From Verrucomicrobiota bacterium (GTDB taxonomy: Bacteria > Verrucomicrobiota > Kiritimatiellia > UBA8416 > SLMC01), in NCBI GenBank assembly GCA_030018915.1, contig JASEHE010000001.1, positions 15,843 through 79,842 of the forward strand: a stretch of 64,000 nucleotides of DNA, read 5' to 3'. Under the pieces are notes generated by a model that saw only the letters and a list, made by a program, of their open reading frames with translations, did no database searches and was not told the origin of the DNA. Within the stretch, counting starts at the first letter, position 1. Every line of letters starts with the position of its first letter. The translations under genes were made by a program, and so were the position numbers. Below, one piece after another: positions 815 to 26,517 of this stretch.

Positions 815-822
815 CCGGGCCT

Positions 823-2879: not shown

Positions 2880-3092
2880 TGAAAACGAGATGTGCCGGAG
2901 GGCAGCATCTTATGGAGTTGCCGGGATCGGGAAAAGTGGTCTTTGGAAAAGCTCTCCAAGTATCGAACGGAGATCAGTTGAGTTGACCACATCGCCACCG
3001 AATTGTCAACCCCTAAACCCGGATATTTTCGCGCGGGAGTAATATGCGGGCTAAAACGCCCTCAAAACGCCGATCCGGAGATTCCATGACCA

Positions 3093-3995: not shown

Positions 3996-6910
3996 GGCCG
4001 CGCGGCGGCGGCTGCGTCCGGCGCCGCCTTTGAGACGAGCGGCGCCCGTTTCATGATCGGTTTGCCGGCCGGGTCCACAAGCCGCGCGGTCACGAAGATG
4101 AGCAGGTTGCGCTTATCGGCTTTGTCGTAGCGGCTGCGGAACAGCCGGCCGAGCAGCGGAATGTCGCCGAGCACCGGAATCTTGTCGTCAACGCTGCTGC
4201 GGATCTCGGTGATCATGCCGCCCATGACCACCGTGGCCCCATTGTAGATGGAAATCTGTGTGGTCACGGTGCGCGTGTGAAAAAAAGGCTGCTCCATGTT
4301 GAGCACCTGCTCGTTTCCCCACTGGTCCTTGAACACCGAACCGTAGTTGTGCCAGATCGGTTCCGACACCACCTCGGGCGTCATGGTCAGATTGATCATC
4401 TGGCCTTCCGGGCTGACCTCCGGCAGCACGGAAAGAATCACGCCGACTTCCCGGGTCTCGAAGGACCCTGGTTCCACGATGCCGCCGATTGCCACGAGAG
4501 TGCCCCCGGCGGCCGCCGCCAGGATGGGTTGCACTGTGAACTCCGTCGGATAGATGTACTCCGTGACCACCTTGATGGTCGCCTCCAGGCCCGACTTGGT
4601 CGTGACTTTCGGGGCCGAAAGCAGGTCGGCATTGCCTTTCTGCTCGATTGCATGCAACACCATCGAGATTTCCGGGTTCGTCAGAACGGCCGCCAGCGTC
4701 AGAACATCGTCGGGCTGCACGGTCGCGCCGGTGGGAACGGCCATGTCGCGCACAAAGCGCTCGCCCCTGGTGAATCCTCTATCGAGTCCACCCATGTTCC
4801 TCCCCATGATCAGGCGTGGCCGGCTGGACGGCGGCCCGACGGCGCCCGACTTGTATGCCATTTCCCAGTTGTCCGTCAGGCCCCATTCGATTCCGAAGGA
4901 ATTGAGGTCGGTCTGGCCGACTTCGACGAAGCGCGCTTCGATCTCGATCTGGCTGGGCACCACGTTCAGCGCGGCCAGCTTTTCCTCGAAAATTGCCAAG
5001 TTGTTCTCCGTGTTCGCCACCATGAGCTTGCCGATGGCCGGGACGTGCTTGATGAACGAGCCCCCCGGCCACTGCACGCCCATTTCCCCGAACAGATCCT
5101 TCAGATTCGTCTCCCTGGTGGTGGTGGTTCGTTCCAGAGCCGTAAAGTCGCTCTTCCTTGCCGTCGCGCTGAGTTCTTCCCTGGTCCTCTCCGTGACTTC
5201 CACAAAGGACGCCAGCACGTCATACATCCGGTGAATGATCGGGCCATCCGGCGCGTTGAACGGCACAATCATCACGACGCTCCCCTCGATGCGCCACTTC
5301 AAGTTGGCGATGGACGTGACGATCTTGAGCGCCTCCAACACCGTAATGTAGCGGGCGCTGAACGTGAGCAAGGGGACTTCCACCCCGCCCGCCGCCATCG
5401 CCGCCTCGGGGACGGCTTCCGCCGCAAATGGGTCCTGCTGAGCAGCCCAGACGGGCGCCGTCAAGCCGCCACCAGCGGCGCCCACAAGGCCCAGGTTCAA
5501 GATCATGTTCACGCCCCGCTTCTCCTTCGACTCGGAAGACAGCGGATCGTGCTCCACGCTGGACGATTGAAGGAACTGAATGACGTCCTGAATGTTGGCC
5601 TGCCGGAAATCAATGTCCGGGATTTCGATCTTTTCCATCTTGTCCATGATGGCCTTGCGTCTGGGGTCCTCGGTGCTGATCGGTTGTTGCCGGTCGGTGA
5701 CAGGCGCGCTCATCTCGCTTTCCATGAGGGCATAGTCCCGCCGGTTCCAGTCGCGCTGCACGTCCGTCATCATCTGCTTGCGGGTGTACTCGAGTTCCAT
5801 GATGGCGATGTCGCCCTTCCGATTCGCCACCTTCTCCATCATGCGGATGGCCTCGGTGTTGTACGGGTCCAGCTTGACGATCTTTTCGAAGAACTCCTGG
5901 GCTTTGTCCAGTTCTCCCGCCAGGTAGTGCTCGCGGCCTTGGCGCAGCAGGTCGCTGAGTTTCTCCTCGGCTTCCGTCAAATCCTTCTGCTGCCACCGCT
6001 GTGTTGGTTTGGGTGGAGGCGGAGGCGGCTTGGCCTCGCGCCGCGCGATTTCGGCGGCAAGATCCCCGGCCAAAGGATGCCCGATCAGGAGGGCCCTTCG
6101 ACACAGCTTTTTCGCGTCCTCATAGTCGGCCTGCTCCATGAGCCGGAATGCCTCCATATAGGTGCTTTCCATCATGCCTTTTTCGGCCGTCTTTCGGTCC
6201 GCCTCGTTCTCGGCTCTGAACCCGGCGTCCTTGAATGCGTCCACGGCGTCCTTGAAGAGCTTGGTTGACTCGGTGAACTTCCGGGCCTGGAATGCCTTGT
6301 TGGCCTCCACCAGGGCTTCCCGGCCGTGTCGTTCGTAGGCGCGCCGGCGGAGCTCCTCGCTGTCCTTCATGAGGTCTATTTCGGCGGATCGTGGATCCAT
6401 GGCCTTGACCGCAGCGCGCTCGAAATCTGCCGGCGCGGCTTCACCGGCGAGTGGCGCGGGCTCCGCCGCGGCAACTGGAGCTGGAGGAGGAACCGGAACT
6501 GGCTCCTCCTTCTTCACTGACGGTGGCGCCTCCATCGGAACCTTGCTTGCCTCCTCGATCGCCTTGTCAAGATCGTCCGACGCCTCGGGGGCCGCTCTAG
6601 CCGGCTCGGCAGCTGGTGGGGCTTCCGCGGGCTTCTCCGCCGGTTTCTCGGCCGGCGCGGGTTCAGCGGGTTTTTCCACCGGCTTTGCGGTTTCTTTCTT
6701 GGGGGAATCAAGTAGTCCTTCGATTGCCATATCAATCGCCAGGTCCTCGACGATCTCGGCGCCGGACTTCGCGGCCTGTCCGTACGCGGCGGTGGCCCAC
6801 AGTCCAACGCCTACCATGGCAGACAGCATTCCGGAAGCACAAACAAGGAAACACGCCTTTTGTTTCATCGGAAAATTCTCCTCTACCGTTCTACCGCAAA
6901 CCGTAACCAA
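3992..6910 (-). CDS. pilQ: Secretin (type IV pilus / T2SS outer-membrane channel) with N-terminal TPR-containing region and PAEK-rich linker
   Basis: 972 aa, signal peptide MKQKACFLVCASGMLSAMVGVGLWATAAYGQAA. The C-terminus VVMGGMITE...SVDDKIPVLGDIPLLGRLFRSRYDKADKRNLLIFVTARLV is the canonical secretin signature. TPR-like helices and a (PAEK)n low-complexity linker lie upstream. Confidence 0.8.
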   Translation of the reverse strand: MVTVCGRTVEENFPMKQKACFLVCASGMLSAMVGVGLWATAAYGQAAKSGAEIVEDLAIDMAIEGLLDSPKKETAKPVEKPAEPAPAEKPAEKPAEAPPAAEPARAAPEASDDLDKAIEEASKVPMEAPPSVKKEEPVPVPPPAPVAAAEPAPLAGEAAPADFERAAVKAMDPRSAEIDLMKDSEELRRRAYERHGREALVEANKAFQARKFTESTKLFKDAVDAFKDAGFRAENEADRKTAEKGMMESTYMEAFRLMEQADYEDAKKLCRRALLIGHPLAGDLAAEIARREAKPPPPPPKPTQRWQQKDLTEAEEKLSDLLRQGREHYLAGELDKAQEFFEKIVKLDPYNTEAIRMMEKVANRKGDIAIMELEYTRKQMMTDVQRDWNRRDYALMESEMSAPVTDRQQPISTEDPRRKAIMDKMEKIEIPDIDFRQANIQDVIQFLQSSSVEHDPLSSESKEKRGVNMILNLGLVGAAGGGLTAPVWAAQQDPFAAEAVPEAAMAAGGVEVPLLTFSARYITVLEALKIVTSIANLKWRIEGSVVMIVPFNAPDGPIIHRMYDVLASFVEVTERTREELSATARKSDFTALERTTTTRETNLKDLFGEMGVQWPGGSFIKHVPAIGKLMVANTENNLAIFEEKLAALNVVPSQIEIEARFVEVGQTDLNSFGIEWGLTDNWEMAYKSGAVGPPSSRPRLIMGRNMGGLDRGFTRGERFVRDMAVPTGATVQPDDVLTLAAVLTNPEISMVLHAIEQKGNADLLSAPKVTTKSGLEATIKVVTEYIYPTEFTVQPILAAAAGGTLVAIGGIVEPGSFETREVGVILSVLPEVSPEGQMINLTMTPEVVSEPIWHNYGSVFKDQWGNEQVLNMEQPFFHTRTVTTQISIYNGATVVMGGMITEIRSSVDDKIPVLGDIPLLGRLFRSRYDKADKRNLLIFVTARLVDPAGKPIMKRAPLVSKAAPDAAAAARP

Positions 6911-6948
6911 CGACGCCGATCCTAATCGCCCGCCGTCTCGCTTTAGCT

Positions 6949-8022
6949 TTAGTCGTTCCGCTTCGTCAGTTTCTGACCGACCGTGAATTGTTTGCCGTCT
7001 TGCTCGCGTTCTATTGCCACACTTTCAGAATCCCTGTCAATTCGCAACATCTTGTACCGCTCGTCCTGAAGCACGAAAACGTCTCCGGGCTTCGCGGCGA
7101 TCTCTTTACTTCCCACGAGGAAAAACAAATGAACAGTATACTCGAACTGCTCGGCGTCCACGCCCTTCACCAGCACGACGACTTTATCGCCCTGCACCAA
7201 GGTCAGTTCGGACAGGTCAACCCGTTGCGACACCTTGCTGGTCGCCGTCGTCCTCATCTCGTATTTCTCTTCGAACTTGACCAGCTTGAATCCGCACGCT
7301 TCCTGGCCGATCTTCTTGAAGAACGTCATCAGGCTGCCGGCCTGGCTGCGGTTGAGGCCGTAGGTCCGGAAGCCGTCCGGACCGACGACCGTGCTCCTGA
7401 ACTTGAGGATGAATGGACGGACAACGAGCCTATCGACACGCAGTTTAGCCGGCAATTCCGGCCGGCTCCTGGGATCGGCGGGATCGGTCGAAGGCTGCGC
7501 GAGGCATTCCTCGACATTACTGAACCCGTCGTCGTCCTTGTCTTTGTTGGCGTCTGTCGGATCGAGAGGGTTGAGGCCGTGCTTCTTCTCCCATTCGTCT
7601 GGCATCTGGTCCTTATCCGTATCGCGACGGATGTCGATAATTGGCGGTTGTGGCCTCTTGCAGCCTTCGTGCGCGCATTGCATTGCAAGGTATGGGATCG
7701 GCCAGCGGCAATCCACGCACCACACCCGCATCTCGGGGGTGACCAATTGCCGATTGGTCCATGCATTGTAATCGATCTGGAAGGGCGCCCCGATCGCCTT
7801 CCGCGCCTGTTGGAAAACGGATTCGTCCTGGACTTCCGCGTCGAGATGCGCCGGTTTCATGTCGCGAATCTCCTCGTCCCATTCCCGTTGTTTCTCCTGG
7901 ATGCGGCCGATCTGCACGGCCAGATAGAGCAGAGAGAGAATAAGGCACACGAGCATGACAAACGCAATGAGTTTATCATGGTGAGTTCTGAGCGCGTCAA
8001 CGATGTCGTCAAACACCTTCAC
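6949..8022 (-). CDS. Pilus-cluster bitopic membrane protein (PilP position) with CxxC...Cx4C zinc-ribbon-like motif and TSP3/EF-hand-like DxDxDG motif
   Basis: 357 aa, one N-terminal TM (LIAFVMLVCLILSLLYLAVQI), VWCVDCRWPIPYLAMQCAHEGC, DPTDANKDKDDDGFSNVEEC. Translationally coupled (4-nt overlaps) to flanking pilus genes. Positional equivalent of Amuc_1099. Confidence 0.5.
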   Translation of the reverse strand: MKVFDDIVDALRTHHDKLIAFVMLVCLILSLLYLAVQIGRIQEKQREWDEEIRDMKPAHLDAEVQDESVFQQARKAIGAPFQIDYNAWTNRQLVTPEMRVWCVDCRWPIPYLAMQCAHEGCKRPQPPIIDIRRDTDKDQMPDEWEKKHGLNPLDPTDANKDKDDDGFSNVEECLAQPSTDPADPRSRPELPAKLRVDRLVVRPFILKFRSTVVGPDGFRTYGLNRSQAGSLMTFFKKIGQEACGFKLVKFEEKYEMRTTATSKVSQRVDLSELTLVQGDKVVVLVKGVDAEQFEYTVHLFFLVGSKEIAAKPGDVFVLQDERYKMLRIDRDSESVAIEREQDGKQFTVGQKLTKRND

Positions 8023-9035
8023 GGCGTAGTCTCTCCGGCTTTTGCGCGGCCTCGGGCCGGTTCAAACTTGTAGACGGTCACATTCATCCGCGCCTGGAGT
8101 GGTTTCTCGAGGGTCGGGCCGCTGACCACCCGGTCCTCCCGTTGCGGCCAGACCAAGCGGGCAGGAACTTTCTCCTCGGCCTTGTCCGCGCCGTCCGGCT
8201 TCGCGGCCGGCGTCCTGGCACTAGGGCGCCCTGCTGCGGCAACGTCGATCTCTTCCGCCGCCTGGGCCGGCGACGGCTTGACTCCGGTCCACTCGTTCTG
8301 CGCATCCAGGAACGTCACCACGGTGAAGGCGCCGAGTTTCGCGAGGCGATTCAGGATTCTCACGACCGAGGATTCCTTGGCTTTGAAGTCCAGCGCGAAG
8401 GACTGCCTGGTGTAGACGACTTTCTCGGCGGTCTTCGCCTCCGCCTTTGCCGGCTCCCTCGCCGCATGCCGGCGGCCGGAGGTCTCGAGCGCGCCCGGCG
8501 TCTTCTGCTCCTCGAATTCTTCACGGGCAACCCGCGTCAGCGCCGCGGCGCCTTCCTCGAAGACCGCCCGGCACACTGCCTGGACGATCAAGAGCTGCTC
8601 GTTCAGACGCATGACGTCCGTCGGAGACGGCATGATGCCTCCGGCATATTTCTCGAAGCCGAATTCGAAACGGGGCGGCAGCGCCGCGCCATGCTTCTCG
8701 GCTTCCTGGACCAGTTCCTTCTTCGCGTCGCTCAACAGGGTGAGCAGAATGGCCGGGCTGACTTGTACGACCTTGATCTCGCCCTGCCGCAGGTCGTCCG
8801 TGAGCCGCCCACGCCAGTCGGCGCAGACCTGCGCGTTCTTACGCTCGCGCTCGACGTTCTCCAGACTTGGGAACGGCTTGTTCCGATAGAAGTTGCGAAG
8901 GGTCCTCATGGCGGAATCCACGTCGCCCTTTACCGAGTTGAAGCGCTCGATCTCCCCGTAGAGCAGGAAGGCGGCCACGGCGACCAGCACCGCCACGGTC
9001 GCCGCGCCGATGATCACGAAGATGTTGGTTTTCAC
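8019..9035 (-). CDS. Amuc_1100-like / PilO-family pilus-associated membrane protein
   Basis: 338 aa, N-terminal TM (IFVIIGAATVAVLVAVAAFLLY) followed by coiled-coil, C-terminal A/P/K-rich tail. Same position (between secretin/Amuc_1099-like and PilM) and architecture as Akkermansia Amuc_1100. Confidence 0.45.
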   Translation of the reverse strand: MKTNIFVIIGAATVAVLVAVAAFLLYGEIERFNSVKGDVDSAMRTLRNFYRNKPFPSLENVERERKNAQVCADWRGRLTDDLRQGEIKVVQVSPAILLTLLSDAKKELVQEAEKHGAALPPRFEFGFEKYAGGIMPSPTDVMRLNEQLLIVQAVCRAVFEEGAAALTRVAREEFEEQKTPGALETSGRRHAAREPAKAEAKTAEKVVYTRQSFALDFKAKESSVVRILNRLAKLGAFTVVTFLDAQNEWTGVKPSPAQAAEEIDVAAAGRPSARTPAAKPDGADKAEEKVPARLVWPQREDRVVSGPTLEKPLQARMNVTVYKFEPARGRAKAGETTP

Positions 9036-10699
9036 CGGAGCCTGTCTCCGCTGGTTTCAATGGGTTTGTTCAGGCGCGCGCGAATGGTGAACTCCCAGGT
9101 GGAATCAATCAGCAGTTGGCGCTCCAGCTCCGTCTTGTCGGAAAAAAGGCCCGATTCGCGGAGCCGGTCCCGATAGACCACGATCGGCGTCTTGTCCACC
9201 GTGGCCGCCAGCTTGAGCTTATCGTCAAACCCACGCCCGACGATCTCTACCCCTTCCACACGGTCGCCGGCCGGGGCGAGCGGCCGGATCGAGTTGAGCC
9301 ACATTCCGTCCAGCAGGCACGCGTGAATCGCATCAATCATTTGCAGCCATTGCGTCCGCGTCCCGATGACCAGCGCGATCTCGTCCAGGTCCTTCTGGAC
9401 GGCCTGCTTTTCTTGCTGGACGCTCTTGAGGCGGCCTTCGATTTTCCGGAAATCCGCGATCCGTTTTCCCGCGGTTTCGAGCCGGGTTTCCAGCATGGCC
9501 CGCATCCGGTGGAAGTAGACCCACCAGCAGAGCATCGTCAGGATCAGGCCGACCCCGGCCAGGATGAAGAACGGTTGCCGGCGCCGGAGTACCCGCCGGG
9601 CCAGGAGGTCGGGCGGCATGAGGTTGATTTCAACCGGACAAGTCAAGGCCCGCCGCAGGGCCAGGCCGGCCACCTCCCCGAGGAGGTGGAGGTCCCCCTC
9701 AATGCGCTTGGGCTCAATGGACTCGTTGACGGCTATGTTGGCGAACGGGTTGAGGTATTCCACTTCGACCGTGAGCTTCTCCCGGAAGAACGTATCCATG
9801 TGCGGGATGATCGCCGAGCCGCCGGTCAGCAGCACGAGACTCGGCGGTTGACCGCCCTGCTGGCTCCGGTAGAAGTTGATCGAGCGGTTGATTTCGGCGT
9901 GGAGCCGGGTGATGACGTTGCGCGCGATCTTGGACACCCGGTTCGCCGTCTCGTTCTCCGGTCCGGCGTAGACGCCGCCGAAGGCGACGAACGCGTGAGC
10001 CAGCTTCAACTCCTCGGCCTCCTTGAAGGGAATCCCGAACTCCTTCATGAGTTCTGTCGTAATCGCGTTGCCGGCCACAGGAATGCTGCGGCTGAAAATC
10101 CGGCTCTCCTCGATGAAGATCAGGTTCGACGATCGAGCGCCGATGTCCAGAACCATGGCGCAGCCGGGAAGGCCCGGATAGTTGTAGCGGACCGTGTTGT
10201 ACAGGGCCATGGGCGCCGCGTCTATGATTTCCGGCTCGAGGCCGGCCGCCAGCACGCAGTCCGTCAGCCGCGTGATGTTCTCGATCTTGACGGCCACCAG
10301 CATGACGTTCAGGTCGTCCGGTCCTCCGCCGCTGATCAACTGGTAGTCCCAGACCACCTCGTCAATCGGGAACGGGACGTTCTGCTCGGCTTCGTAGCGG
10401 ATGATCTGCACGACCTTGTCTCGGGCCACGGGCGGCAGCTTGACGTACCGCGGGAACACCGCCTGGCCCGACAGGGTCATGAAGAGCGGCGCCGGCTTGA
10501 TGCCGCGCTCGGCCATCAACTGGCGAATGGTGGAGACAATATAGGCGGATGCGTCGGTCTCGCTCTCGGGGTCCACGTCGAGATGCCCGACGGCATAGTT
10601 CAGGAGCTCAGGCGCGCCCGATTTGGCGGCGGAGAACTCCGCCATCACAATCTTACTGGCGCCGACATCCAGGGCGATTATTCGGTCGGTTCGAAACAC
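9032..10699 (-). CDS. pilM: Type IV pilus assembly PilM (actin-like ATPase) fused to PilN-like TM/coiled-coil domain
   Basis: 555 aa. IIALDVGASKIVMAEF actin-like fold start and PilM/FtsA-like core. The C-terminal part carries a TM (FFILAGVGLILTMLCWWVYF) plus coiled-coil, as in PilN. Confidence 0.75.
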   Translation of the reverse strand: MFRTDRIIALDVGASKIVMAEFSAAKSGAPELLNYAVGHLDVDPESETDASAYIVSTIRQLMAERGIKPAPLFMTLSGQAVFPRYVKLPPVARDKVVQIIRYEAEQNVPFPIDEVVWDYQLISGGGPDDLNVMLVAVKIENITRLTDCVLAAGLEPEIIDAAPMALYNTVRYNYPGLPGCAMVLDIGARSSNLIFIEESRIFSRSIPVAGNAITTELMKEFGIPFKEAEELKLAHAFVAFGGVYAGPENETANRVSKIARNVITRLHAEINRSINFYRSQQGGQPPSLVLLTGGSAIIPHMDTFFREKLTVEVEYLNPFANIAVNESIEPKRIEGDLHLLGEVAGLALRRALTCPVEINLMPPDLLARRVLRRRQPFFILAGVGLILTMLCWWVYFHRMRAMLETRLETAGKRIADFRKIEGRLKSVQQEKQAVQKDLDEIALVIGTRTQWLQMIDAIHACLLDGMWLNSIRPLAPAGDRVEGVEIVGRGFDDKLKLAATVDKTPIVVYRDRLRESGLFSDKTELERQLLIDSTWEFTIRARLNKPIETSGDRLR

Positions 10700-10761
10700 C
10701 TTGTCCTCTTCCGCGGATTCCAGTTTCGCGGATTCCGGCGGCGCCGAGTCGAGCCGCCGAC

Positions 10762-11460
10762 CTACTGCCGGATAAACGGATAGTCATCAATGTTGATCAG
10801 GCGAAAAGGCGACTGATCCCGATTCAGGAGATACCCGTCGCGCGGCACAACAATCTTGCTGTCCACCACTTTTTCGTTCCGCCACCACTTTTCCCCGGCC
10901 GGCATTGGGACGTCGGTCTCGCTCATCTCGTCAATGATCTTCCCCCCGCGCAGAACTTCGACGCCGATGGCCACAACCTTGCCGTGCCGCTTGAGGGCGG
11001 TGGGAGTAAGATAGACCGAGCAGACGCGACCGCGGCCCCTCTCGATGTCCCTGTAGGTCACCGTGGTCTTGTAGAGACTGTACATTTTCCCCTTTTCGCC
11101 CTCTTTCGACGTCATGACGTAGAACCGCATCATGAGTTCGTTAATCCAGTCGGGGAACACATCGAAGGTGAGCGTGATCTCCGCCCAGTCTTGCGGCGCC
11201 GTCGTGGGGCTGACGCCGGCGCGGAAGTTCGGCGTCTTGATGTAGCCGCGTTCGGCGAGTCCCGTGAACTTGCGGAGGCGAACGACGTTGCTCGGCCTCT
11301 CGCCCGGCGTCGGTTCCGCCGCGGCTTCGGCGCCGGCGGCCGGGCCTTCCTCTTTTTTTGCGCCAGCCTTCGCCCGTTCAACGGAAACGGCGGTGAGACT
11401 CAACACCAATGCCAGCAGCCCGCCGGCCAGACACAAACGCCGAACGAGGTTCGTCATCAT
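10762..11460 (-). CDS. Secreted pilus-cluster protein (Amuc_1102-like position)
   Basis: Start chosen at MMTNLVRRLCLAGGLLALVLSLTAVSV signal peptide (the longer upstream ORF is R/P-rich and implausible). ~233 aa. First gene of the pilMN–secretin operon, 62 nt upstream of pilM. Confidence 0.5.
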   Translation of the reverse strand: MMTNLVRRLCLAGGLLALVLSLTAVSVERAKAGAKKEEGPAAGAEAAAEPTPGERPSNVVRLRKFTGLAERGYIKTPNFRAGVSPTTAPQDWAEITLTFDVFPDWINELMMRFYVMTSKEGEKGKMYSLYKTTVTYRDIERGRGRVCSVYLTPTALKRHGKVVAIGVEVLRGGKIIDEMSETDVPMPAGEKWWRNEKVVDSKIVVPRDGYLLNRDQSPFRLINIDDYPFIRQ

Positions 11461-11576
11461 AAACCTCCCGTGGGTCAAAAAAACGCGCGGCAATCCCGCA
11501 AACAACGAACGGGGGGACATATAGAAGATATGCCACGACAAAGCAAAGCAAAAATGCCGGAAACTTTTTCGCGGCA

Positions 11577-11586
11577 GGGGGGGGGG
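11577..11586. repeat. Homopolymeric G10 (C10) tract in the divergent promoter region between the pilus operon and the secreted-protein genes
   Basis: Ten consecutive G read directly at 11577-11586. It lies 117 nt upstream of the pilus-operon first gene (minus strand) and 271 nt upstream of the 490-aa secreted-protein gene (plus strand). Confidence 0.6.
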
Positions 11587-11705
11587 CAGTCGCGGGGTGG
11601 CGCCCCGGCGGCTTGCGCGGCCGGAGTTCGATATTTCCGCGTCCCCGCGGCGCAAGGCCGCAGGGACGCCACCCCGGACCACCCCGTTATTTCGCGTTTT
11701 TGCGG

Positions 11706-11747: not shown

Positions 11748-11856
11748 ATTAACTCGGTGATGACACATGTGGGTGTCTGCGATTGGCCCGAAGCTGCCGC
11801 AGGGACTGGATAGCAGACGGGCCGCCCGACGAACCGTCAGACCCGGAGGTTGCTCC

Positions 11857-13329
11857 ATGAAAGGCGATTCGAGAAATTCCCGCCGCCCGATCCTGGGACT
11901 TCTTTCCGCGGCCGCGCTCGCCGCCTTGGCAGGACAAGCGACGGCTCAGACCCTCATGCCATACTACGACACCTTCGAAGACCACACGAACAACCAGACG
12001 ATCATCGGCGCCAACGGGTGGCTGGCGTTGACCAACATCTATGCCGTGGGAACCAACACGGGGCCCTACACCTACACCAACGCATGCGGATTGCCCTTCC
12101 CCACCTCGAACCACAACGTCGTGGTCAAGCTGGACACAGAGAACTCCTCCGTCTCTAACTGCTTCAGCTACGGCGCGACGACCCCCACCAACGTGTGGGT
12201 GGACAATATGATCCAGTTCGTGATGTCTCCGGATGAAGACGCCCGGGGCGTGATCACCAACGACAACAAGATCCAGTTGGCGTACTACGTCAACACGAAT
12301 GGAAATCCTGTTTTCCTCCACAGCGCGCGATGGTTTGACACGGAGGAGTGGGAATACAGGGCCACCAACGTTTTCTCCACTGTCTCGGACGTCACGATAC
12401 CGACTGGGGCTTGGGCACGGGTAACCGTGACAATGGACTACAAATCAGACAACGTAAGGAACCACAAGTATTTCCGGATCGCTTTCAACGGTCATACGGT
12501 CACAAGCGACTTGGCGTATGCCCTGCCCCTAAATGCCGACCCCCCTAGCGCGACGGGCACGTATTTTGTCTGCGCGAATTTCCAGACCGCCACCGGTCTC
12601 AAGTTGAATTCGGTGAACTTCTCGGGCACCGGACACCTCGACGACTACAAGGTGGAGGGCGACGCGGCGCCTCAGATCGCCATCATCGCCGCGATATGGT
12701 CCGACGGCGCTTCGGGCGATACGCGGGGCGGGTGGATCACGCCGGGGCTGCTCGTCTACGTGAACTCCGGGGGCGGCACGAACTTCTCGATCGGCGCCAA
12801 TACCTATTGGAGCTACACCAATCTAGTTGTTAACGGCGCGCCGCAAACTCCTACGAACCTCCTCGCCTTCAACAACGTCACGTCCAACCAGTTCTTCGCC
12901 GCCTACTTCGCCGCCGACCGGACCACCAACCGAATCCCGCACTGGTGGCTCGCCGAGCAGAACTCGGGCTGGACCAACGACTTCAACGCGGCTGCATCGG
13001 GTGATCCTGACGGCGACGGCCTGCTGACCTGGGAGGAATACCTCGCGAGCACGGATCCCAACGACAGCAACTCGGTGTTCCGGATTATTGAGTTCACGAC
13101 CCAGGACAACGGCACCAACTACACCATCCGCTGGCCTACGGCGTCCATTGACCCCGTGTTCGGCGGCATTCCGTTCCTCGTACTGCGGACCGACAACCTC
13201 ACCAACGAGTCCTGGCCCGTGGCTGGGACCGTTCCGCGGGCCGTCGGGATTTCCCAGTTCAGCGATGCCCCCCCGCCCGCGAGCAACCCGGTCTTCTACC
13301 GCGTTGCCGTGACCAATACGACGCAATAG
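11857..13329 (+). CDS. Secreted modular protein (~490 aa): N-terminal beta-sandwich/lectin-like module, DPDGDG Ca-binding-like motif, C-terminal FYRV domain shared with the giant neighbour
   Basis: GGAGG RBS 9 nt upstream of ATG. Signal peptide MKGDSRNSRRPILGLLSAAALAALAGQATAQ. PYYDTFEDHTNNQTIIGANGW resembles the repeated module of the downstream giant protein. GDPDGDGLLTWEEY motif. C-terminal ...NPVFYRVAVTNTTQ. Confidence 0.6.
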   Translation: MKGDSRNSRRPILGLLSAAALAALAGQATAQTLMPYYDTFEDHTNNQTIIGANGWLALTNIYAVGTNTGPYTYTNACGLPFPTSNHNVVVKLDTENSSVSNCFSYGATTPTNVWVDNMIQFVMSPDEDARGVITNDNKIQLAYYVNTNGNPVFLHSARWFDTEEWEYRATNVFSTVSDVTIPTGAWARVTVTMDYKSDNVRNHKYFRIAFNGHTVTSDLAYALPLNADPPSATGTYFVCANFQTATGLKLNSVNFSGTGHLDDYKVEGDAAPQIAIIAAIWSDGASGDTRGGWITPGLLVYVNSGGGTNFSIGANTYWSYTNLVVNGAPQTPTNLLAFNNVTSNQFFAAYFAADRTTNRIPHWWLAEQNSGWTNDFNAAASGDPDGDGLLTWEEYLASTDPNDSNSVFRIIEFTTQDNGTNYTIRWPTASIDPVFGGIPFLVLRTDNLTNESWPVAGTVPRAVGISQFSDAPPPASNPVFYRVAVTNTTQ

Positions 13330-13592: not shown

Positions 13593-16500
13593 ATGAGGCG
13601 GTCAATTGGAATCTCTTTTCTGCTGCTCGGGGCAATGCTGGCAATGGCCCCTCGATCTCGCGCGGCCTATTACGACCAAGACTTCAACGACTTCGCCTAC
13701 GCCTACTACGGAACCACGGTGACGAATGGCGACGGATGGGCGGTGTCGCATTGTTACGTCAGCAACGCATTCCGGTACTGCCGAATGGGCGCGACCAACT
13801 ATCAGGACGCGACCCGTCTCGCGTATGTGATCTCGCCTCTGTTGACGAATGGGATCGGGAGGATCTCCTGGGAAACCAAGAACCAGCAAGCGGGGAACAA
13901 CGTCTACGACCTCCAGTACTCCACCAACGGAACGGCATGGACATGGGGCGGCGCCTACACGAACAGTGACGTCAATTGGATATCAAACTCCCTCGCCCTG
14001 ATCAGCTATGCGAGCGTCTACGTCCGATTCATCAAGACGGCCGATCCCGGCGGCCCCAACGATCGATTGTACTTCGACAACATCCGGATTATTCCCGCGG
14101 CGTCGTACGTTGTGATCACGAATATCGCGCTCAGCCCGGACCCTCCGCTGACCGACGGCTCCGTTCAGGTTTCCGCGACGATCCTGCCCTGCGCACAAGC
14201 CGGCAACGTCTCGGCGTGGGTGTACTATGCGACGTCCGGCGCCCGGCCGTTCGCGAACTACGCGTCTATGTCCACCACCGGCAACAACTACTACGTCACA
14301 TCCAGCGGGATTCCGGCCCACTCCCAGCCGGGCCTCACGGTAAAATACTACCTCTATGCGACCTTCAGCGGAGTCACCCCGTTGACCCCAACAAGTTCCC
14401 CGCCCGGCTCGGTTGGCTACTATTGGTATTTCTTGCGGGCGGCTTCCAACGAATCCGCCTACCCGAACATGCAAATCACGGGCGCGGCCACCACCAACAT
14501 GCTCCTGGCCGCCGACTACCTGTGGCAGGGCGTCATCACACCGCCCGGGCCTCTGACCAACCCCACGTTCTCGTTCGCCTCCGGAACCAACTCCTGGGGC
14601 GACACCAATCAGCCGGTCACGGCTCTGCCCGTGTATGGCGCCGCCGACCCGGGCGCGAACATCAACGTGAATGAGACCGTCACCAACTACCTGTCGTTCC
14701 TGTTCAACGAGACCAACCTGAGCTACAGCATTCAGAACTCCTCCTGCCTCAACTTCGACGCCTGGACCAACGGCACGACCGCCAGCTACGGCGCCTATAC
14801 CAACGGCGAGGGCTGGGTCATCGCGGGCCGAATCAACACCCTCGGCGCCGGCGAAACCGCCCGCGCTTTCATCAACCGGTACGGAATCCTCCATCCGACT
14901 CTCCCTATCAACGAACCGATCCACTACCTGCAATCCCCCCAGCGCGAGGGCGGAATCGGCTCCGTCTCCTTCTGGTATCGGAACTGGGATGCGGCGCCGA
15001 CCAATCCGGCCACCGATGCCGCCGGCTTCACGGTCCAGAAGTCCACGAACGGCGCGGCCGGGACATGGATGGATATCAGTCCCACCATCTGGCAGACCAA
15101 CATCCTGTCCACGAATTGGCTCTACTTCGCCGCCTCGGTGGCCGACCGCAAGAGCGCCTACGTCCGGATCGTCAACACCAACAACACCTCCTCGCGGTCC
15201 TGGCTGTGTCTGGACGAAGTGGTCGTCACCGACCCTGGCGCCACCGTGGACATCACGGAGAACCCGCGCAACCCAACGACCCCGCTGGCCGGGCAATGGG
15301 TGGACGTCTCGATTAATGTGACGCCATGGGGTGGCGCGACCAATCTCGCCTGCGCCGTCTACCAGCAACCGGAGGGGATGGCCACGGTTCCGTACGCCAT
15401 GACCCGGGTGGCAGGCAACACATTCTCCGTGTCTCTCCCGCCCTCCCCGCCGGGCCGAGTCTACTACTACTACGCATGCAACTACGGGGGATTCAATGCG
15501 ACCCCGATTTATTACCCGGATGGCGCCCCGGGACAAACGCTGGTCTATACCAATCTGACGGACCCCGGGTCAGCCCGGCAGCAGGATTTCCTGCCGTTCA
15601 ATATCGCCAACTACGGCACAACCGTGACAAACAGCGACGGATGGTCGGTGTCGCACTGCTACGTCAGCAACGCTTTTGCCCACTGCCGCATGGGCCCCAC
15701 CAACTATGGCGGAGGCACTCGCTTCGCCTACCTGGCCTCGCCTTTGCTGACGAACGGTTTTGGCAACGTCTCCTGGTCGGTCCGAAACTACCAAGCCGGT
15801 CAAAACACGTACGAGGCGCAGTATTCCACCGACCAGACAAACTGGGTCTCGCTCGGCGCGTATGCCAACGACAGTACCGCATGGGTCACCAACCGTGTGT
15901 GGGGAGGAATTTATGAAGATTCCTGCGTGCGGATTATCAAGACCGGCGACCCTGGCGAGGCCAATGATCGGCTCTACTTCGACGACATTCTCATCAGCCC
16001 GCCGCCGTGCGATGTGGTGATTTCAGAGCCGCCCTTCTTCACGCCGGGCTATCCGGCCAGGAATCAGCCCGTGACCGTCTCGGTGTTCATCACGGACCGG
16101 AGCGCCAACTATCCGGCCTGCAATCGCATCACGACGCTCCACTACACGCATTCCGGCGGAGCCGGCGGCGTGGTGGCCATGACGCAAGGCGGCGGAAACG
16201 CATGGTCCGCGGTGGTCCCGGGATTCCCGGCCGGAGTCGTTTCTTACTACATCCGATGCTGCTTCGACGGCTACTACTACACGAACGGAGCCTTCTCCGA
16301 GAACCAGAGCCCTGCTTTCTCGCCCGACGCGCCGCCGACGGCGCCGGAGCCGAGCGCCCGTCACACCCACACGATCCGCGAGTTCGAGTCCGACTACGAC
16401 TCCATCAAGGTGAACCTGTCCTACACCAACACACCGATCGCAATGCGCCAGTTGAACGACTATGAGTGGCAGGGCATCCTGGACTTCGGCTACGGCACGA

Positions 16501-19500
16501 TGGACCCGGCCCTGAACCTGGCCGGCTTCAGTTGGTTCACCCAGACCAACTACTGGGGCGGCACCAACGAGTGGGGCGATCCGGGCCAGACCCGTTCGAG
16601 CCTCCCATTGACCGGCGTCATGAGCGCTGGCCCCTCGAATATCACGCTGTGCGGCCCGCAGTACGGCCAGGTAGTGATCCGGTTCAACGAGTCCAGCTCG
16701 AACTACACAGTGCAGCGCTGCGCGTACCAGGACTTCAACCGCTGGTCGGCCTCCTCCGACTTCTTCGAGGAAACCTGCAGCAGCGTCGGCGTCACATCGC
16801 GCGTCCAGAACTTCGACACGTGGGCAACCAACCCGCCATACATTCAAAAGGACGACTTCGAAAGCGCATACTGGTGGAATAATATCTACGGCTCCCACTA
16901 CCCGTCGTGGGACACCCGCCTGGTTCAGGGTCCCTCGTTCTGGACGTTCGCGCACTACAAGCTCACCAACAACTTCGAATTGGCGGGCGTCGGCAAGTGC
17001 GCTGTTCTCAAGGATGAGGCCAACTCCGGCCTGTTCTATTCGTCTTACCGCAATCCCATTGCTGACAATGGCCATGGACTCGGCTTCCTGGAGATGGACT
17101 TCCGGTGCCAGGACAACAATTGGAAGCCCACTTTGTACGAGCACAACGTCTGGTCAAATTCAGCCATTGAAGCCGCCGTCACCGCCACCGAACTGCCCAT
17201 CAGCGCGAATGGACTCATGCTGGGTCCCTCCTGGCTCTCTCTGCTTTCCCGCTATACGGCCGAAAACAACTACTATGAGCTCCGGTGGGAACACACCGGC
17301 TTGGGCCCTAGCGGGTTGGGCAAGCGTCGCCTCGGAATCTATCGCCGTTCTCCAGATCCGGTCGGCTTCACGCTTCTGGAATCTTCCGCCGAGTATAACG
17401 GCTTTCTCTCCACTACGAACACGCTGCGCTTTGTCGTGAGCGCGGCGGCCGGCGGAAAGGTCTATCTGCAGGGTCTTCTGGATGGCGCCCGTGTCGTGCA
17501 TGCAATAGACAACACCGGCTATGTCATCACCGATCCCGGCTCCATCGGCATCAACACCAGGGACGCCTCCATCATGGTCACGAACATCACCGCCGGCTGG
17601 GCGCAGGCGGAATCCTTCCGGGGCTGGCCCGACTTCACGGAGGGGTCCGACACCAACTTCGTCACCAACGGTTGGGCGGCAACGCGAATCTGCGACAGCA
17701 ACGGCAGCGGTGACAGCTGGATCCAACTGCGAGCCTGGAGCGCGGCGGGACAGCCCCCTGCGGTGGTCTCTCCCAAACTGCCGCACGGACTCGGCTTTGT
17801 GAACTATCGCTACAAGAAGTTCGAAGGCAACCCGACCTTGTGCAAGACGCAATGGTCCACCAACCTCGCCGACTGGGTAACCGTTGACGCCTGCGAGATT
17901 GGCGGCAGCGACTGGCAGGACCGGTCTTTCACGGTAACCAACGCGCTCCCCGCCAATATCTACGTCCGATTCCTCAACAGCACAAACGCGTCGGGTGTGT
18001 CAACGAACCTGTATCTCGCCCGCATCGCGCTGCACCCTTCGCCGACGCGCGGCTACGCCGAGAACTTTTCGGACAACCAGGCTCAGGGCTGGACCGGCGA
18101 TCCGAACTGGTGGAAGGTCAACACCAACGGGGTGCCACGCTACACCCGAACCGGCTATGCGGCCGCGCCGCTCAAGTTCGTGGTCAGCACGGCCAAGGAG
18201 AGCGACGAGAGCCAGCTGGCCCTGGACTCTCCCTGGGTCTTCAACGCCGCGTACACGGTCAGCAACGTCTCGTTTGTTCACTTGTCCCATCCCATCCGGT
18301 GGGCCGAACATCCCGGCACGCTCGGAGAAGGCGTCTACGTGCGGGTCAAGCACACCGACACGGACGCCAGCCTCGTGGTGGACAACGTCCAGATTGACCG
18401 CTGGCACGGCTACACGGCGAACGTCAACGGCTGGTCCGCCACCGAGTGCTGGACCTCGATGCGCGCCGCGAACGACGACTACACGGCCCACACCAACTGC
18501 CTCGAACTTCGCCATTCCCGGGCCTATACCAACATCTACGAGCGCCCATACTCCATCGGTGGCCAGTATGCGCGCAGCCCCTACCTCACTAACGGGATCG
18601 GCGTTCTCTCCTTCTCTTTCAAGAACGTCGCGCCCGAACCCAACCCGCTCGACACTGGGCAACCGGTATCTTTCGACTACTACCAGGGTGAGTGGACCAA
18701 TCTGCCGGATTTCGCCGGCCTCACCCCCTACATCTCAGGCACAACCAATAATTTCGACACGGCAGTCGCGCTCCGGCCAACCAACTTTGCCATCCGCTTC
18801 ACCGGCTATATCTACATTCCTACCAACGGCGCCTGGCTCTTTTCGACGGAATCCTCGGAGGGCAGCAAACTGTACATTGATGGAACCGAATTGGTGAACA
18901 ACGACGGGATTCACGCCAAGCAGAAGATCTCGGGATCGAACACCTTGAATCTGGGCTGGCACGACATCAAGGTCACGTATTTCAACGGCGCCGGCACTAA
19001 TGCCGCCTCTTTGGAGGTCCGATACGCAGGGCCAGGGGTCTCGGATCAGCCGATCCCCTCTTACGCCATGATTGTCGAGCCGGCCGTAGTCAAGGTGGAA
19101 ACGGCTGCCACCCCATTCCCGAGCACATGGAACACTCGCGCCACATACACAAACAACTGCCCTACCAAATGGACGTCCAAATCTATTTCCATCAACATCC
19201 CCAGTCCCTATATCGCCGCCAGAATCCTCCACGTGTCCACGAACTATCAAACCGGAATCCTCCTGGACAACTTCGAGGTGAATGACTTCGTGGAGCGCGA
19301 TCAGTTCACCTGGGTCGCCTACAACGCCCTGATCACGTCCAACCAGGCCAGCCGGCTCATGGACATCAAGGGCGGGTACCTCAACTACGACACCGTGAAC
19401 CAGACGGCCAAGCCGCCCATGACCAACGATCGGCCATATATTCAGTCCGCCAACCTGACGAACGGCATCGGCGAGATCAGTTTCTGGTATCGCGCCTGGG

Positions 19501-21186: not shown

Positions 21187-23547
21187 TCAGTCGCCTGAGC
21201 CGAGCCAGCGGAAGAACTGTACAAAGCATTCATGTCGGCCGTCCTTGTTCAGGAAAGGGTCCCGCCAGATCACGGCCATCGCCCGCTGGTACCCGTGCCA
21301 GTCTCCGCCCAGCAGCCCTTTGGATCCCAAGTGGCCGCTCGTCGGCGAATACGGCCCCGCCACCACGAACACCGTGAAGAGGTTCTGCCGCGCGCCAAGC
21401 AGGCCGCACGAGTATGAGATCATTGACTCCAGCTCAAGATCGCTCTTGTTCGAGAAAGTTCCTCTGAAATCTATCCGCCCGATATCGGCGACGTTCGTGA
21501 AGGCCGATCCGGTTTTCCGCATCTCGATGAACGCGCCGGCCAGCGTCTTGGCTTCCGCTACGGTTATTTTGGTTTCCGACTCCGGATACCCCAGCGGCGC
21601 CTCGACAAAGACGGAGGCCAGCACGTTCGAGTTCATGCTGTTCGGGTTCACCAGCCCGCAGCGCGTCCCGACGCCGGGTGGCGCCGTGGTGAAATACGCA
21701 AGGACATTGTCGTATGGCGTGGTATTCGGGGAATTGGTCCCGTGCGTGAACAGACGAATGGTTCTCAGCGGATCCTTCGAGGCCCGCAGCAGGTTCCCAA
21801 GCTCTCCCGCCGACTTCAGTTGCCCCTGGTTCGACACGTGCATCAACGTATCCAAGTCTATCCCGCGCTGAGGCTGCAGCTCCCCGCGCCTGATGCGTTC
21901 TTGCGTCTTCGTATTGACTCCTCCAATCGTGTGCCCGGCGTTCGTCGTCGTCGTGTCCCAGCACAGCGGGCTCGAGCAGTCCCAGTTGACCCGGGGATCC
22001 GTGGCCTCCAGCGATTTGGGCTGCCAATCGAAGTTGCCCCCGGCCAGGCCCGACACGATGAAGCTGTTGGTCCAGGTCAACGCGATGGCGTTCGTGGGAT
22101 AAGGCACGGCGTCCACCATCGCGTTCGGCGGCCCGCCGCCAATCGCCTCTTTGCAGTACACCACGCAGCGCACCCTCAGCGTCACGGCGATCCGGTTGGT
22201 CGGCCAACAGCCGTCGATCGAGACGTCTCCCACACCCCCCCGCAAGTCCGTCGAACCGTACCAGTTCGCCTCCCCCTTGTACCCCGAATAGCGCGTTTGC
22301 GGGTACGGGGGCATCTTCTTCGTCTCCTCGGCATTCGCGGCGCTCTCGTAAGCGAAGCGGGCAAGCTCGCATTCCGTCGTCGTTTCGATGTCGAACGTCG
22401 TGTTGGTCTGGCCCCGGATGAACGGGTAGAACCACTCCACCCGGATCCGTCGCGGCGGCGTCATCGAAAAGGTCCCCCCCTCCTCGCCCGTGATGTAGTT
22501 CAGAACCACTGTGGTTGGCGCCACCTCGTTGATCATGGGCACGGATTCCGTGCAGCCGGAGTCCAGGCGCCTTGGCACAACGTCCTCGTCCACGTAGTCG
22601 AGCAGGTTCGTAAAGACAAACGGAGCGTCGGCCAAGGCGATACCGCTTTTCACCAACCGGTCAACGATATCCGCCTGCTTGGCCTCCAGCTCCGCCACAG
22701 TCCCGCCGATGTAGAACGGGGTGACGATGATGGGGGCCCCGTTGGAAAGGACCTGATTCCCCTCCGGGAACCTGGAATAGGCGACGAAATTCGATGGGTA
22801 GCAGTCCTTGTTCAACCCTTTGTCTTCCTGCATCCAGTAGAAATCCCGGATTGTCTCGTAGCGCGCGTCGTTGTTCCGGTTGCCGGTGAGCTTCCCCGAA
22901 TCCTTGATCTCGTTCAGGATGGCGTTAGTGAGGACGATCTCATGCGGGTCTGCGCCCGCCGCGCGGTTGGAGCCGCCCACGTAGTTCATGTCGAGGTAGC
23001 CGGAGATATTCGCCACGACGTAGGCCACCCAACCCTGCACGGTCCCTTCTTCTCTATCCGGCCATAGCGACTCGCCGCAGATGAGCCACTGCGAGTTGGT
23101 CTGCGACATCGGTCCCCACAGGTCCCGCGGAATCTGCTCCATGGTTTCGTCGGAAAACACCACCTTCACCCGCGAATTGTCGACGCTTCTGGCGGTCCAG
23201 TCTTCCGAGGTGAAAACCTGGAAATTGGGATAGACATCGTTGGCCAGATAGCCCGTGATCTTACCGAAATCGTTGGTGAACACGTTGGTCTGCGCTACGT
23301 TGACCGTGATGTCTTCAACGGCCCGCGCCAGGCCCACCCAGACCAGTTGCCGCGCTCCGACGCCGAAGCGGTAACTACCGGCCCCCAGGCGCTCGGTCCG
23401 CATGCTGATGGAAAAGGCAACCCCCGCCATCAGGAGAACGGCCAGAACACCCAGCACGATAATCAGCGCCACGCCCTCGCGGTTCCGTCCTTCTCGAAAT
23501 CCGCGCCCGGCAACCGGCGCGCGACAGTCCGGTTTATTTTTTCGCAT
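21187..23547 (-). CDS. Oversized GspK-like minor pseudopilin (786 aa)
   Basis: N-terminus REGVALIIVLGVLAVLLMAGVAFSI matches the GspK-type prepilin-like hydrophobic segment (no Glu+5). Last gene of a gspG-H-I-J-K-ordered operon. C-terminal ~450 aa beyond normal GspK length. Confidence 0.6.
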   Translation of the reverse strand: MRKNKPDCRAPVAGRGFREGRNREGVALIIVLGVLAVLLMAGVAFSISMRTERLGAGSYRFGVGARQLVWVGLARAVEDITVNVAQTNVFTNDFGKITGYLANDVYPNFQVFTSEDWTARSVDNSRVKVVFSDETMEQIPRDLWGPMSQTNSQWLICGESLWPDREEGTVQGWVAYVVANISGYLDMNYVGGSNRAAGADPHEIVLTNAILNEIKDSGKLTGNRNNDARYETIRDFYWMQEDKGLNKDCYPSNFVAYSRFPEGNQVLSNGAPIIVTPFYIGGTVAELEAKQADIVDRLVKSGIALADAPFVFTNLLDYVDEDVVPRRLDSGCTESVPMINEVAPTTVVLNYITGEEGGTFSMTPPRRIRVEWFYPFIRGQTNTTFDIETTTECELARFAYESAANAEETKKMPPYPQTRYSGYKGEANWYGSTDLRGGVGDVSIDGCWPTNRIAVTLRVRCVVYCKEAIGGGPPNAMVDAVPYPTNAIALTWTNSFIVSGLAGGNFDWQPKSLEATDPRVNWDCSSPLCWDTTTTNAGHTIGGVNTKTQERIRRGELQPQRGIDLDTLMHVSNQGQLKSAGELGNLLRASKDPLRTIRLFTHGTNSPNTTPYDNVLAYFTTAPPGVGTRCGLVNPNSMNSNVLASVFVEAPLGYPESETKITVAEAKTLAGAFIEMRKTGSAFTNVADIGRIDFRGTFSNKSDLELESMISYSCGLLGARQNLFTVFVVAGPYSPTSGHLGSKGLLGGDWHGYQRAMAVIWRDPFLNKDGRHECFVQFFRWLGSGD

Positions 23548-23971: not shown

Positions 23972-24063
23972 TTTGTGGCACTCATGGCCAGGCTCTTTAT
24001 TCGGCAATCGGCAATCGGCAATCGGCATTCCGTTGTGGCCCTGCCGCTCTGTGTTCATCGAGT

Positions 24064-24726: not shown

Positions 24727-24730
24727 AACC

Positions 24731-24756
24731 GCCCACCGACTACCGACCACCGATAC
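24731..24756. repeat. ACCGAC heptad repeat (x3) copy between two pseudopilin genes
   Basis: CCCACCGACTACCGACCACCGATACT in the 30-nt gap between the GspI-position and GspJ-position genes. Confidence 0.45.
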
Positions 24757-25319: not shown

Positions 25320-25358
25320 GGTTGCGCCCCCGCGCCGTCAATGTTCGGTTTCTTACGG

Positions 25359-26069: not shown

Positions 26070-26085
26070 TGCGGCTTGCCTCCTG

Positions 26086-26511: not shown

Positions 26512-26517
26512 GAGTCG

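Follow-up and report, generated by a model that had tools for sequence, protein, structure and literature searches.

A C-terminal domain shared by two adjacent exported proteins in a secretin/pseudopilin locus of Verrucomicrobiota

Introduction

It has long been an open question how type II secretion systems (T2SS) recognize cargo that is already folded, and to our knowledge no general linear or modular cargo signal has been described for them. Verrucomicrobiota, Kiritimatiellia and Lentisphaeria are major degraders of polysaccharides and mucin, and in Akkermansia the gene cluster Amuc_1098-1102 is of medical interest. This cluster has been described in Akkermansia muciniphila as 'pili-like', and its published description makes no mention of proteins with the C-terminal domain that is the subject of this study, of a giant neighbour or of a pseudopilin cassette (PMC5332112). 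Here, we analyzed a 64,000-nucleotide stretch of a Verrucomicrobiota bacterium (GCA_030018915.1, contig JASEHE010000001.1, positions 15,843 to 79,842, forward strand; hereafter the window, whose own numbering is used below), in which a related cluster lies next to two adjacent genes for exported proteins of 490 and 2480 amino acids (aa), termed small and giant, both ending in the same kind of domain (C-terminal domain, CTD).

The window resembles the Akkermansia cluster in that its divergent operon consists of a secretin and members or relatives of the Amuc_1099, 1100, 1101 and 1102 families, but the CTD itself lies outside every Amuc family model. In outline, the CTD also resembles the tail of the type IX secretion system (T9SS) of Bacteroidota (Por_Secre_tail, PF18962/TIGR04183), a beta-sandwich of ~80 aa that forms the very end of many enzymes and adhesins, exported by Sec but unrelated to one another, and that occurs several times per genome and within one phylum. 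However, the T9SS hidden Markov model (HMM) matched neither the window CTDs nor any of 72 members taken from the exhaustive search described below, the genes surrounding the window CTDs are of the secretin/pseudopilin (T2SS/type IV pilus) type rather than T9SS genes, the phylum is a different one and there is no link to a PorU-like sortase. Since the CTD thus departs from the T9SS tail in HMM, taxon and machinery alike, it is not a member of that family, and those T9SS-tail proteins that were found by the CTD profile matched it via internal fn3 repeats, not via their T9SS tails.

PEP-CTERM/exosortase and GlyGly-CTERM/rhombosortase are C-terminal sorting signals of tripartite make-up, consisting of a short motif, a transmembrane helix and a basic tail (PMC3237569). 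They share with the CTD a many-to-one arrangement, one C-terminal element being carried by diverse exported proteins, but the CTD is predicted to be a folded beta domain with a polar end and without a hydrophobic helix, and it has no NCBIfam match. A further likeness is to the pilins of chaperone-usher systems, which undergo donor-strand complementation: judged by sequence, the CTD is a beta-sandwich without its last (G) strand, and it is encoded within a fibre/secretin locus. It differs in being a tag on large multidomain proteins and not a pilin, complementation is purely hypothetical here, and the Pfam and NCBIfam matches in the window locus include no chaperone or usher family.

Finally, common ancestry is detectable between the CTD and the fibronectin type III domain (FN3, Pfam PF00041), specifically its bacterial 'W-T-D…G-F-x-I-E-R-S…W…Y-F-Y-R-V-R-A-x-N' subtype. 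The order of conserved positions is alike in both (a Trp in strand B, R-S/T after strand C, a Trp in strand C' and the F/Y-Y-R-V-x-A-x-N F strand), but the CTD is obligately C-terminal and single, has its own signature, is confined to one phylum and lacks the FG loop and the G strand.

Results

Comparison of the two C-termini

The small and giant genes and their parts are the following:

11857-13329 (+): small protein gene, 490 aa (translation; third-position GC content (GC3) 0.81 in frame; GGAGG 8 nt 5' of the ATG at 11857)
11857-11946 (+): putative Sec-type signal peptide of the small protein, MKGDSRNSRRPILGLLSAAALAALAGQATA, read from the sequence (no signal-peptide predictor)
11947-12900 (+): N-terminal domain of the small protein, 'PY-x-D-[ST]-F-E-x-Y…G-T-N-G-W', no family match
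12934-13071 (+): linker with a 'PHWWL' motif and a calcium-binding-type (TSP3-like) DxDxDG motif, GDPDGDGLLTWEEYLASTDPNDSN, kept in most CTD-bearing proteins
13072-13326 (+): CTD of the small protein, linker-type subfamily, FN3-derived by profile searches and hhalign, six predicted strands, ending FYRVAVTNTTQ-stop
13593-21035 (+): giant protein gene, 2480 aa (translation; GC3 0.83; probable ATG at 13593, open reading frame (ORF) open from 13344; representative P0020 identical over 2480 aa)
13593-13664 (+): putative Sec-type signal peptide of the giant protein, MRRSIGISFLLLGAMLAMAPRSRA, read from the sequence
18777-19049 (+): PA14 domain, aa 1729-1819 of the giant protein (Pfam PF07691, E 2.3e-11, 44 bits, cutoff 24)
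20043-20789 (+): module just upstream of the giant CTD, motifs VWINEIN, YVELCG, NGYGFWV and RSMGAYE, conserved, no Pfam match
20790-21032 (+): CTD of the giant protein, giant-type subfamily (…TGTNGWSPWLYYCTNLL…FYRVVATNSG-stop; P0020 match E 2.9e-15, aa 2400-2479)

Compared directly, the two CTDs (SVFRIIEF...FYRVAVTNTTQ, aa 406-490 of 490, and PLVAITAF...FYRVVATNSG, aa 2400-2480) gave only a marginal BLASTP match (E 0.007 as a single comparison, 18/56 identities), and a narrow HMM built from seven close relatives of the small protein missed the giant tail, while broader subfamily profiles recovered it. When two small seed alignments were compared by hhalign the probability was 86% (E 4.9e-6), and it rose to 98% (E 2e-13, over 73 columns that span the whole domain) with the 72 tails from the exhaustive search, split into 50 of the linker type and 22 of the giant type. 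The search also succeeded in both directions across the 625 ORFs of the window, the linker-type HMM having the giant C-terminus as its top non-self match (E 5e-6) and the giant-type HMM that of the small protein (E 1e-3); no third CTD-carrying ORF was found among these 625 with the CTD profile. The terminal F-Y-[RK]-[VI]-x-x-T-N and the tail are moreover kept in each family, namely in the relatives of the small protein (P0002-P0008) and in those of the last 330 residues of the giant one (P0009-P0012).

By these profile comparisons, the small and giant tails are homologous and form one domain family. The initial annotation, which had proposed that the two adjacent secreted proteins share a C-terminal domain, is borne out on this point, and its placement of the giant domain at 20790-21032 stands; the start that it gave for the small one, 13068, does not, as the frame begins at 13069 and the domain proper covers 13072-13326.

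Family size, terminal position and taxonomic range

An exhaustive search of 1.84 billion cluster representatives with a 12-sequence CTD profile yielded 891 representatives at E<=1e-3, 77 of them at E<=1e-10. A word-indexed search of 5.8 billion sequences with the 12-sequence alignment returned nothing, the profile being too short for an E-value at that size. In 139 of the best 151 representatives the CTD ended no more than 12 aa from the protein end, and the 12 exceptions had several low-scoring copies per protein. Seven of these exceptions were scanned (P0013, P0014, P0016, P0017, P0025, P0074 and P0109), of which five were ordinary Pfam fn3 repeat proteins and three (P0014, P0016 and P0109) also had a T9SS tail; the non-terminal matches of the CTD profile were Pfam fn3 repeats only. 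The same was examined free of annotation in six-frame translations of 82 genome loci (1.1 Mb), where all 49 CTD-bearing ORFs reached a stop within 5 residues past the domain. Following F-Y-R there is a median of 7 residues (range 4-13), and the CTD is always single at the protein end.

We regard it as nearly certain that the CTD is a real domain family specific to C-termini. The initial annotation had proposed an HMM scan for further proteins ending in the domain, and the 891 representatives, with 139/151 of the best terminal, are what such a scan delivered. A description of the CTD was not found in the searchable literature, which comprised open-access papers only, so that this absence is not proof.

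For the taxonomic range, one genome per GTDB species was scanned with a single linker pattern, giving 299 confirmed stretches. The best 80 of the 299 came from Verrucomicrobiae, Opitutales, Akkermansia, Luteolibacter, Roseibacillus, Kiritimatiellia/Pontiella and Lentisphaeria/Victivallales, and in the lone outsider, from Dongiaceae, only the linker matched. Several genomes contained two or three CTD loci, as exemplified by three from one Victivallales metagenome-assembled genome (MAG). Apart from this outsider, the CTD is confined to Verrucomicrobiota, broadly defined (Verrucomicrobiae, Opitutales, Akkermansia, Kiritimatiellia and Lentisphaeria).

A related tail was observed in locus L001, where a 2930-aa protein (1-5157, +; TSP3_bac, Laminin_G_3 and Peptidase_M10), encoded five genes upstream of an orthologous small and giant pair, ends '…FVLRWEGKDGVVYGVQYSDDLSVWQTV…RRYYRVIVR-stop', a more FN3-like variant of the truncated terminal domain. 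The CTD profile matches it only weakly (E 0.007), and the count of 891 representatives therefore probably understates the extent of the family.

Passenger domains and linker

Signal peptides, read from the sequence, are visible in both window proteins and in many CTD relatives. Pfam analysis of 71 full-length members revealed a wide range of passenger domains, comprising Flg_new_2, Big_7, Laminin_G_3, Peptidase_C25, Peptidase_C1, Beta_helix/NosD, DUF2341 and Calx-beta as well as FGE-sulfatase (sulfatase-maturase-like), PKD, RCC1, CE2_N together with GDSL, CBM_4_9, the purple-acid-phosphatase N domain, PA14 and cadherin-like domains.

The CTD falls into two subfamilies according to the part that precedes it, a calcium-binding-type 'WWL…DxDxDG…W-E-Y-x-A-G-T-D-P' linker (small protein) versus a 'WINE…YVELCG' module (giant protein). 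In most linker-type members the sequence directly before the CTD reads 'P-x-W-W-L … D-x-D-x-D-G … W-[EQ]-E-Y-x-A-G-T-D-P-T-N-x-x-S'. This linker matched NCBIfam Amuc_1099_fam partially and below threshold in 17 of 17 sequences and had no other database echo; the small protein scored 27.1 bits against this model (NF042425, 321 positions, cutoff 50), the match covering model positions 101-157 with its linker only, and so it falls outside the family. The linker of the small protein gave no significant Pfam match, and a few CTD members showed weak matches to TSP3.

Relationship to the FN3 fold

Neither the window CTDs nor the CTD sets matched a Pfam, NCBIfam or PDB-sequence family. Pfam fn3 (PF00041) recognized none of the 72 CTD sequences at E<=10 and neither window CTD at E<=1, and a PDB sequence search with the 72-sequence profile produced only chance-level matches to antibody light chains (best E 0.11). 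The CTD profile does cross-match true fn3 repeats, and hhalign of the CTD alignment against 19 Pfam-positive FN3 repeats gave a probability of 96% (E 1.4e-9), with the following correspondences:

CTD x-[IV]-x-W: FN3 B strand 'I-R-L-N-W'
CTD P-F-x-V-x-R-S-T-N-L: FN3 C strand 'G-F-x-I-D-R-S'
CTD W-x-x-V: FN3 C' strand
CTD G-T-N-x-W-x-D: FN3 E strand
CTD F-Y-R-V-x-A-T-N: FN3 F strand 'Y-F-Y-R-V-R-A-x-N'

By remote homology, then, the CTD is an FN3 derivative. Its last residue aligns to position 79 of the 94-aa FN3 unit, whereas solved FN3 domains reach positions 88-93. As the chain ends 4-13 residues after F-Y-R-[VIP], the FG loop and the seventh (G) strand are not encoded, and at the sequence level the CTD does not make up a complete seven-strand sandwich (A, B, C, C', E, F, G); with the G strand absent, one edge of the sheet should be open. 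The AlphaFold2 model of the small protein has six CTD strands (aa 412-484, predicted local distance difference test (pLDDT) about 60-75) and no seventh, and these coincide with the FN3-aligned motifs. The AlphaFold models were built from shallow alignments (8 and 5 sequences) with a mean pLDDT of 51 for the small protein and of 39 for the second model, such that only the strand count of the small CTD is usable.

The positions conserved specifically in this clade are S-x-F-x-I at the start, followed by (S-)T-N-L, W, G-T-N(-x-W) and F-Y-R. This signature of its own (TNL, W, GTN, FYR), together with the blindness of Pfam fn3 to all 72 members, indicates a distinct clade under its own constraint. 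The FYRV-x-x-TN motif, which the initial annotation had considered distinctive, is indeed a conserved terminal motif, but it is also a generic FN3 F-strand/tyrosine-corner signature; what is distinctive is a strictly C-terminal clade that stops after that strand. The alternative named there, that the domain would turn out to be a common Ig/FN3 fold at random positions, is half true, in that the CTD derives from FN3 and its positions are not random.

The locus and its conservation

The genes on either side of the small and giant pair are listed below:

3992-11682 (-): divergent operon of the Akkermansia Amuc_1098-1102 'pili-like' type (Pfam, NCBIfam)
3992-6910 (-): secretin with tetratricopeptide repeats (Pfam Secretin)
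6949-8022 (-): Amuc_1099 family (NCBIfam Amuc_1099_fam, 66.6 bits, cutoff 50, positions 106-319)
8019-9035 (-): Amuc_1100-like (Amuc_1100_fam, 90.8 bits, under the cutoff of 180)
9032-10699 (-): PilM/Amuc_1101-like (Pfam PilM_2)
10762-11682 (-): Amuc_1102 family (Amuc_1102_rel, 58.1 bits, cutoff 55)
21187-27917 (-): convergent operon with a 786-aa protein (21187-23547) and seven prepilin-type (pseudo)pilin genes, GspG/H/I/J-like (N_methyl and T2SSG matches)
31863-33083 (-): platform protein T2SSF (Pfam)
33099-34916 and 34882-36606 (-): two secretion ATPases, T2SSE with an MshEN domain (Pfam)

Third-position GC content supports as real genes near the pair the (-) operon at 823-11682, the two (+) genes and the convergent (-) operon at 21187-27917, and the small and giant genes are thus flanked by the Amuc_1098-1102-like operon and the pseudopilin operon. 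Pfam and NCBIfam matches thereby confirm the pilus/secretion context proposed initially as a T2SS/type IV pilus-like locus, which is also conserved elsewhere. The convergent operon has further sub-threshold matches to GspG/H/J, PilV and the Verru_Chthon cassette A-D (in the order D-B-C-A). Four of its pseudopilin genes and the 786-aa gene follow a GspH-I-J-K-like order, with a GspG-like pilin gene between the GspJ-like and the 786-aa genes, and the 786-aa protein is possibly a tip pseudopilin of the GspK-like kind, though a very large one.

In a Victivallaceae MAG (L010), a secretin-Amuc_1099-1100-1101-1102-pilin series is divergent from a small-type CTD gene that is followed by a giant homologue, and in L101 PilM/Amuc_1101-like, Amuc_1102-like and pilin genes (to the contig end) are divergent from a small-type gene and a giant homologue. 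The presence of the Amuc_1098-1102 set in both the window MAG and L010 implies that this cluster is far older than the genus Akkermansia. The giant C-terminal module was found in 35 metagenome loci, and the CTD was detectable in 22 of them. Downstream of giant, a 786-aa homologue and pseudopilins (and T2SSF where the contig reaches) were present in 17 of the 21 loci with >=2.5 kb of downstream sequence, convergent in 17/17, and no other neighbour of the giant gene is conserved as consistently as this cassette. A small-type gene lies immediately 5' of giant in six loci (the window, L001, L010, L089, L101 and L120).

Discussion

The reading that we favor, with a probability of roughly 45%, is that the CTD serves as a common handle that would couple folded periplasmic cargo to the surrounding T2SS/type IV pilus-like machine and/or hold this cargo on the surface. 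The machine in question would consist of the secretin, the Amuc_1099-1102-like proteins, the GspG-K-like pseudopilins and the GspF/E-like proteins; the cargo would first be exported by Sec, and once folded in the periplasm it would be coupled by its CTD to the machine and/or afterwards be kept on the cell surface. Taken by parts, some sorting, anchoring or docking role for the CTD is probable, and its recognition by this particular machine is a tentative proposal, with odds somewhat short of even. We speculate that the open edge of the CTD could be complemented by a strand, in that it would accept a partner beta-strand in place of the missing G strand, with the GspK-like 786-aa protein, a minor pseudopilin or an Amuc_1099-1102 protein as candidate donors, and that cargo taken up in this manner would be pushed through the secretin or shown on the fibre; this mechanism we hold to be unlikely. 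That the CTD serves throughout the phylum as a secretion signal dedicated to a T2SS/type-IV-filament machine, with a component of this machine supplying the missing strand, is more doubtful still.

The initial annotation had likened the CTD to a sorting or anchoring signal by analogy with the T9SS tail and PEP-CTERM. The properties expected of such a signal are present (891 representatives, terminal position, diverse passengers, a secretion locus), while membership in either of these two families is not.

Several observations weigh against a common handle. FN3 domains are common as passive spacers in secreted enzymes, and it is mainly the sequence alignment that speaks for a missing G strand, since the structure models are of low confidence. 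In the FYRP subgroup a proline occupies a core F-strand position, and the fold may therefore end in another way than a textbook FN3 does. Regarding the locus, 13 of the 35 giant-module homologues have no CTD detectable at E<1e-4, and in L001, the closest orthologous locus, the pair sits between Tol-Pal and Tad-like genes and not beside an Amuc-like cluster. All-against-all clustering of ORFs from 80 genome loci revealed no gene conserved next to the dispersed CTD genes, for instance one for a sortase-like or processing enzyme, the next-best neighbour family being an ABC-F ATPase in 6 of 80 loci only. Co-occurrence of the CTD with the machine was seen at the level of the phylum and in the synteny of this one gene pair only.

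A rather unlikely alternative is that the CTD takes no part in transport and acts only after export as a surface anchor, binding an outer-membrane or cell-envelope component (protein, lipopolysaccharide or glycan) and thereby retaining enzymes and adhesins. The strict C-terminal position, the diversity of exported passengers and the phylum restriction all fit such an anchor, as does the calcium-binding-type linker before most copies, expected of an extended stalk, and the dispersal of CTD genes without a conserved adjoining machine gene. However, an anchor alone leaves unexplained why two CTD proteins are conserved inside a pilus/T2SS-like locus across classes, and no candidate receptor was found.

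It is also unlikely that the CTD is an ordinary FN3 spacer or stability module, without a part in targeting or docking, whose terminal position reflects a 'linker + FN3' cassette having been shuffled to the ends of genes. Secreted enzymes of bacteria often contain FN3 modules, the CTD is demonstrably FN3-derived by profile alignment, the motif best conserved in it is the signature of any FN3 F strand, and neither a processing enzyme nor a partner was found among the neighbours in the 80 genome loci. But ordinary FN3 is internal and in tandem, whereas the CTD is terminal in 49/49 ORFs and 139/151 proteins, single, and ends before the G strand; it is also confined to one phylum, and with 0/72 members recognized by Pfam fn3 at E<=10 it is a distinct clade with its own constraint.

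Much less probable is the proposal of the initial annotation by which the small protein would be a minimal paralogue of giant, with the N-terminal module in common in addition to the tail. Both mature N-termini do begin with a 'YYD…F…(T)NG(D)GW' string of loose similarity, but full-length BLASTP gave a best E of 0.5, and a profile of the small N-domain (~38 homologues) scored <=0.8 bits anywhere on giant, so that this proposal was not upheld. The N-domain is common to ~38 of 150 CTD-bearing representatives, and as this amounts to about a quarter of the top ones, proteins of the small-type architecture make up a widespread family of their own. Lastly, a resemblance of the tails by chance or composition (Thr/Asn-rich beta sequence, with a coincidental terminal motif) could point to the mere E 0.007 of the pairwise BLASTP, to the narrow HMM that missed the giant tail and to the Thr/Asn/Gly-richness of both proteins, but it is refuted by the profile-profile alignment (98%, E 2e-13), by the reciprocal cross-family HMM matches and by the exhaustive search, which recovered both CTDs at full length while no other window ORF scored.

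What gives the CTD its wider interest is that hundreds of exported proteins of one phylum, unrelated in their other parts, are marked by a single recognizable module, and that two proteins so tagged are conserved inside a secretin/pseudopilin locus related to Amuc_1098-1102. If the tag does direct export or display, then the proteins that Verrucomicrobiota, Kiritimatiellia and Lentisphaeria secrete or carry on their surface would become predictable from sequence, and a portable tag for engineering and a tractable model of cargo recognition by type-IV-filament machines would be at hand. Should the CTD be a T2SS-type secretion signal, this would be the first such system with a recognizable, transferable and modular cargo tag. 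Even if its role is only structural, the family merits a database model, as ~80 residues are unannotated in every member examined.

Additional features of the two proteins and the locus

The small protein (= P0001) is 100% identical to NCBI QME60_00115 of a Verrucomicrobiota MAG, but that record is 457 aa long and begins with MPYYD, 33 codons downstream of the ATG at 11857, whereby the signal peptide is lost from it. Equivalent N-termini occur in the relatives P0002, P0003 and P0005. The public start (MPYYD) is probably wrong, and the ATG at 11857, with its GGAGG and putative signal peptide (window 11767-11970), is probably the true one. Foldseek comparison of the low-confidence small-protein model with the PDB gave no match at E<=0.001, the best being weak matches of its N-terminal half to LamG/lectin-like jelly rolls (best E 2e-3).

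Most of the giant protein, ~2200 residues encoded at 13593-20042, has no Pfam or NCBIfam match other than the single PA14 domain. Within the giant protein there are at least two copies of a ~600-aa unit that starts '…F…Y G T T V T N [GS] D G W [AS] V S H C Y V S N A F…', at aa ~25 and ~665. The module preceding the CTD is conserved in P0009-P0012 (35-38% identity) as well as in the 35 metagenome loci; its 'WINE…YVELCG' motifs are presumably lamin-tail-like, though Pfam did not confirm this.

Between the pseudopilin operon and the T2SSF/T2SSE(MshEN) genes, a PAS sensor protein (28145-29419, +) and a sigma-54 response-regulator activator (30317-31711, -) are encoded, which suggests sigma-54-dependent regulation of the system, and the two distinct ATPases possibly serve extension and retraction. 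Variant arrangements were observed in other loci as well. In L087 (2-10963, +) and L100, two tandem giant-type genes, each with a CTD of its own, lie 5' of the pseudopilin cassette; in L104 (3345-13750, +), the pseudopilin cassette and the 786-aa homologue are directly upstream of a giant-type gene and in the same direction; and in L109 and L119, a giant-module gene without a detectable CTD comes directly after a gene for a GspG-like pilin.

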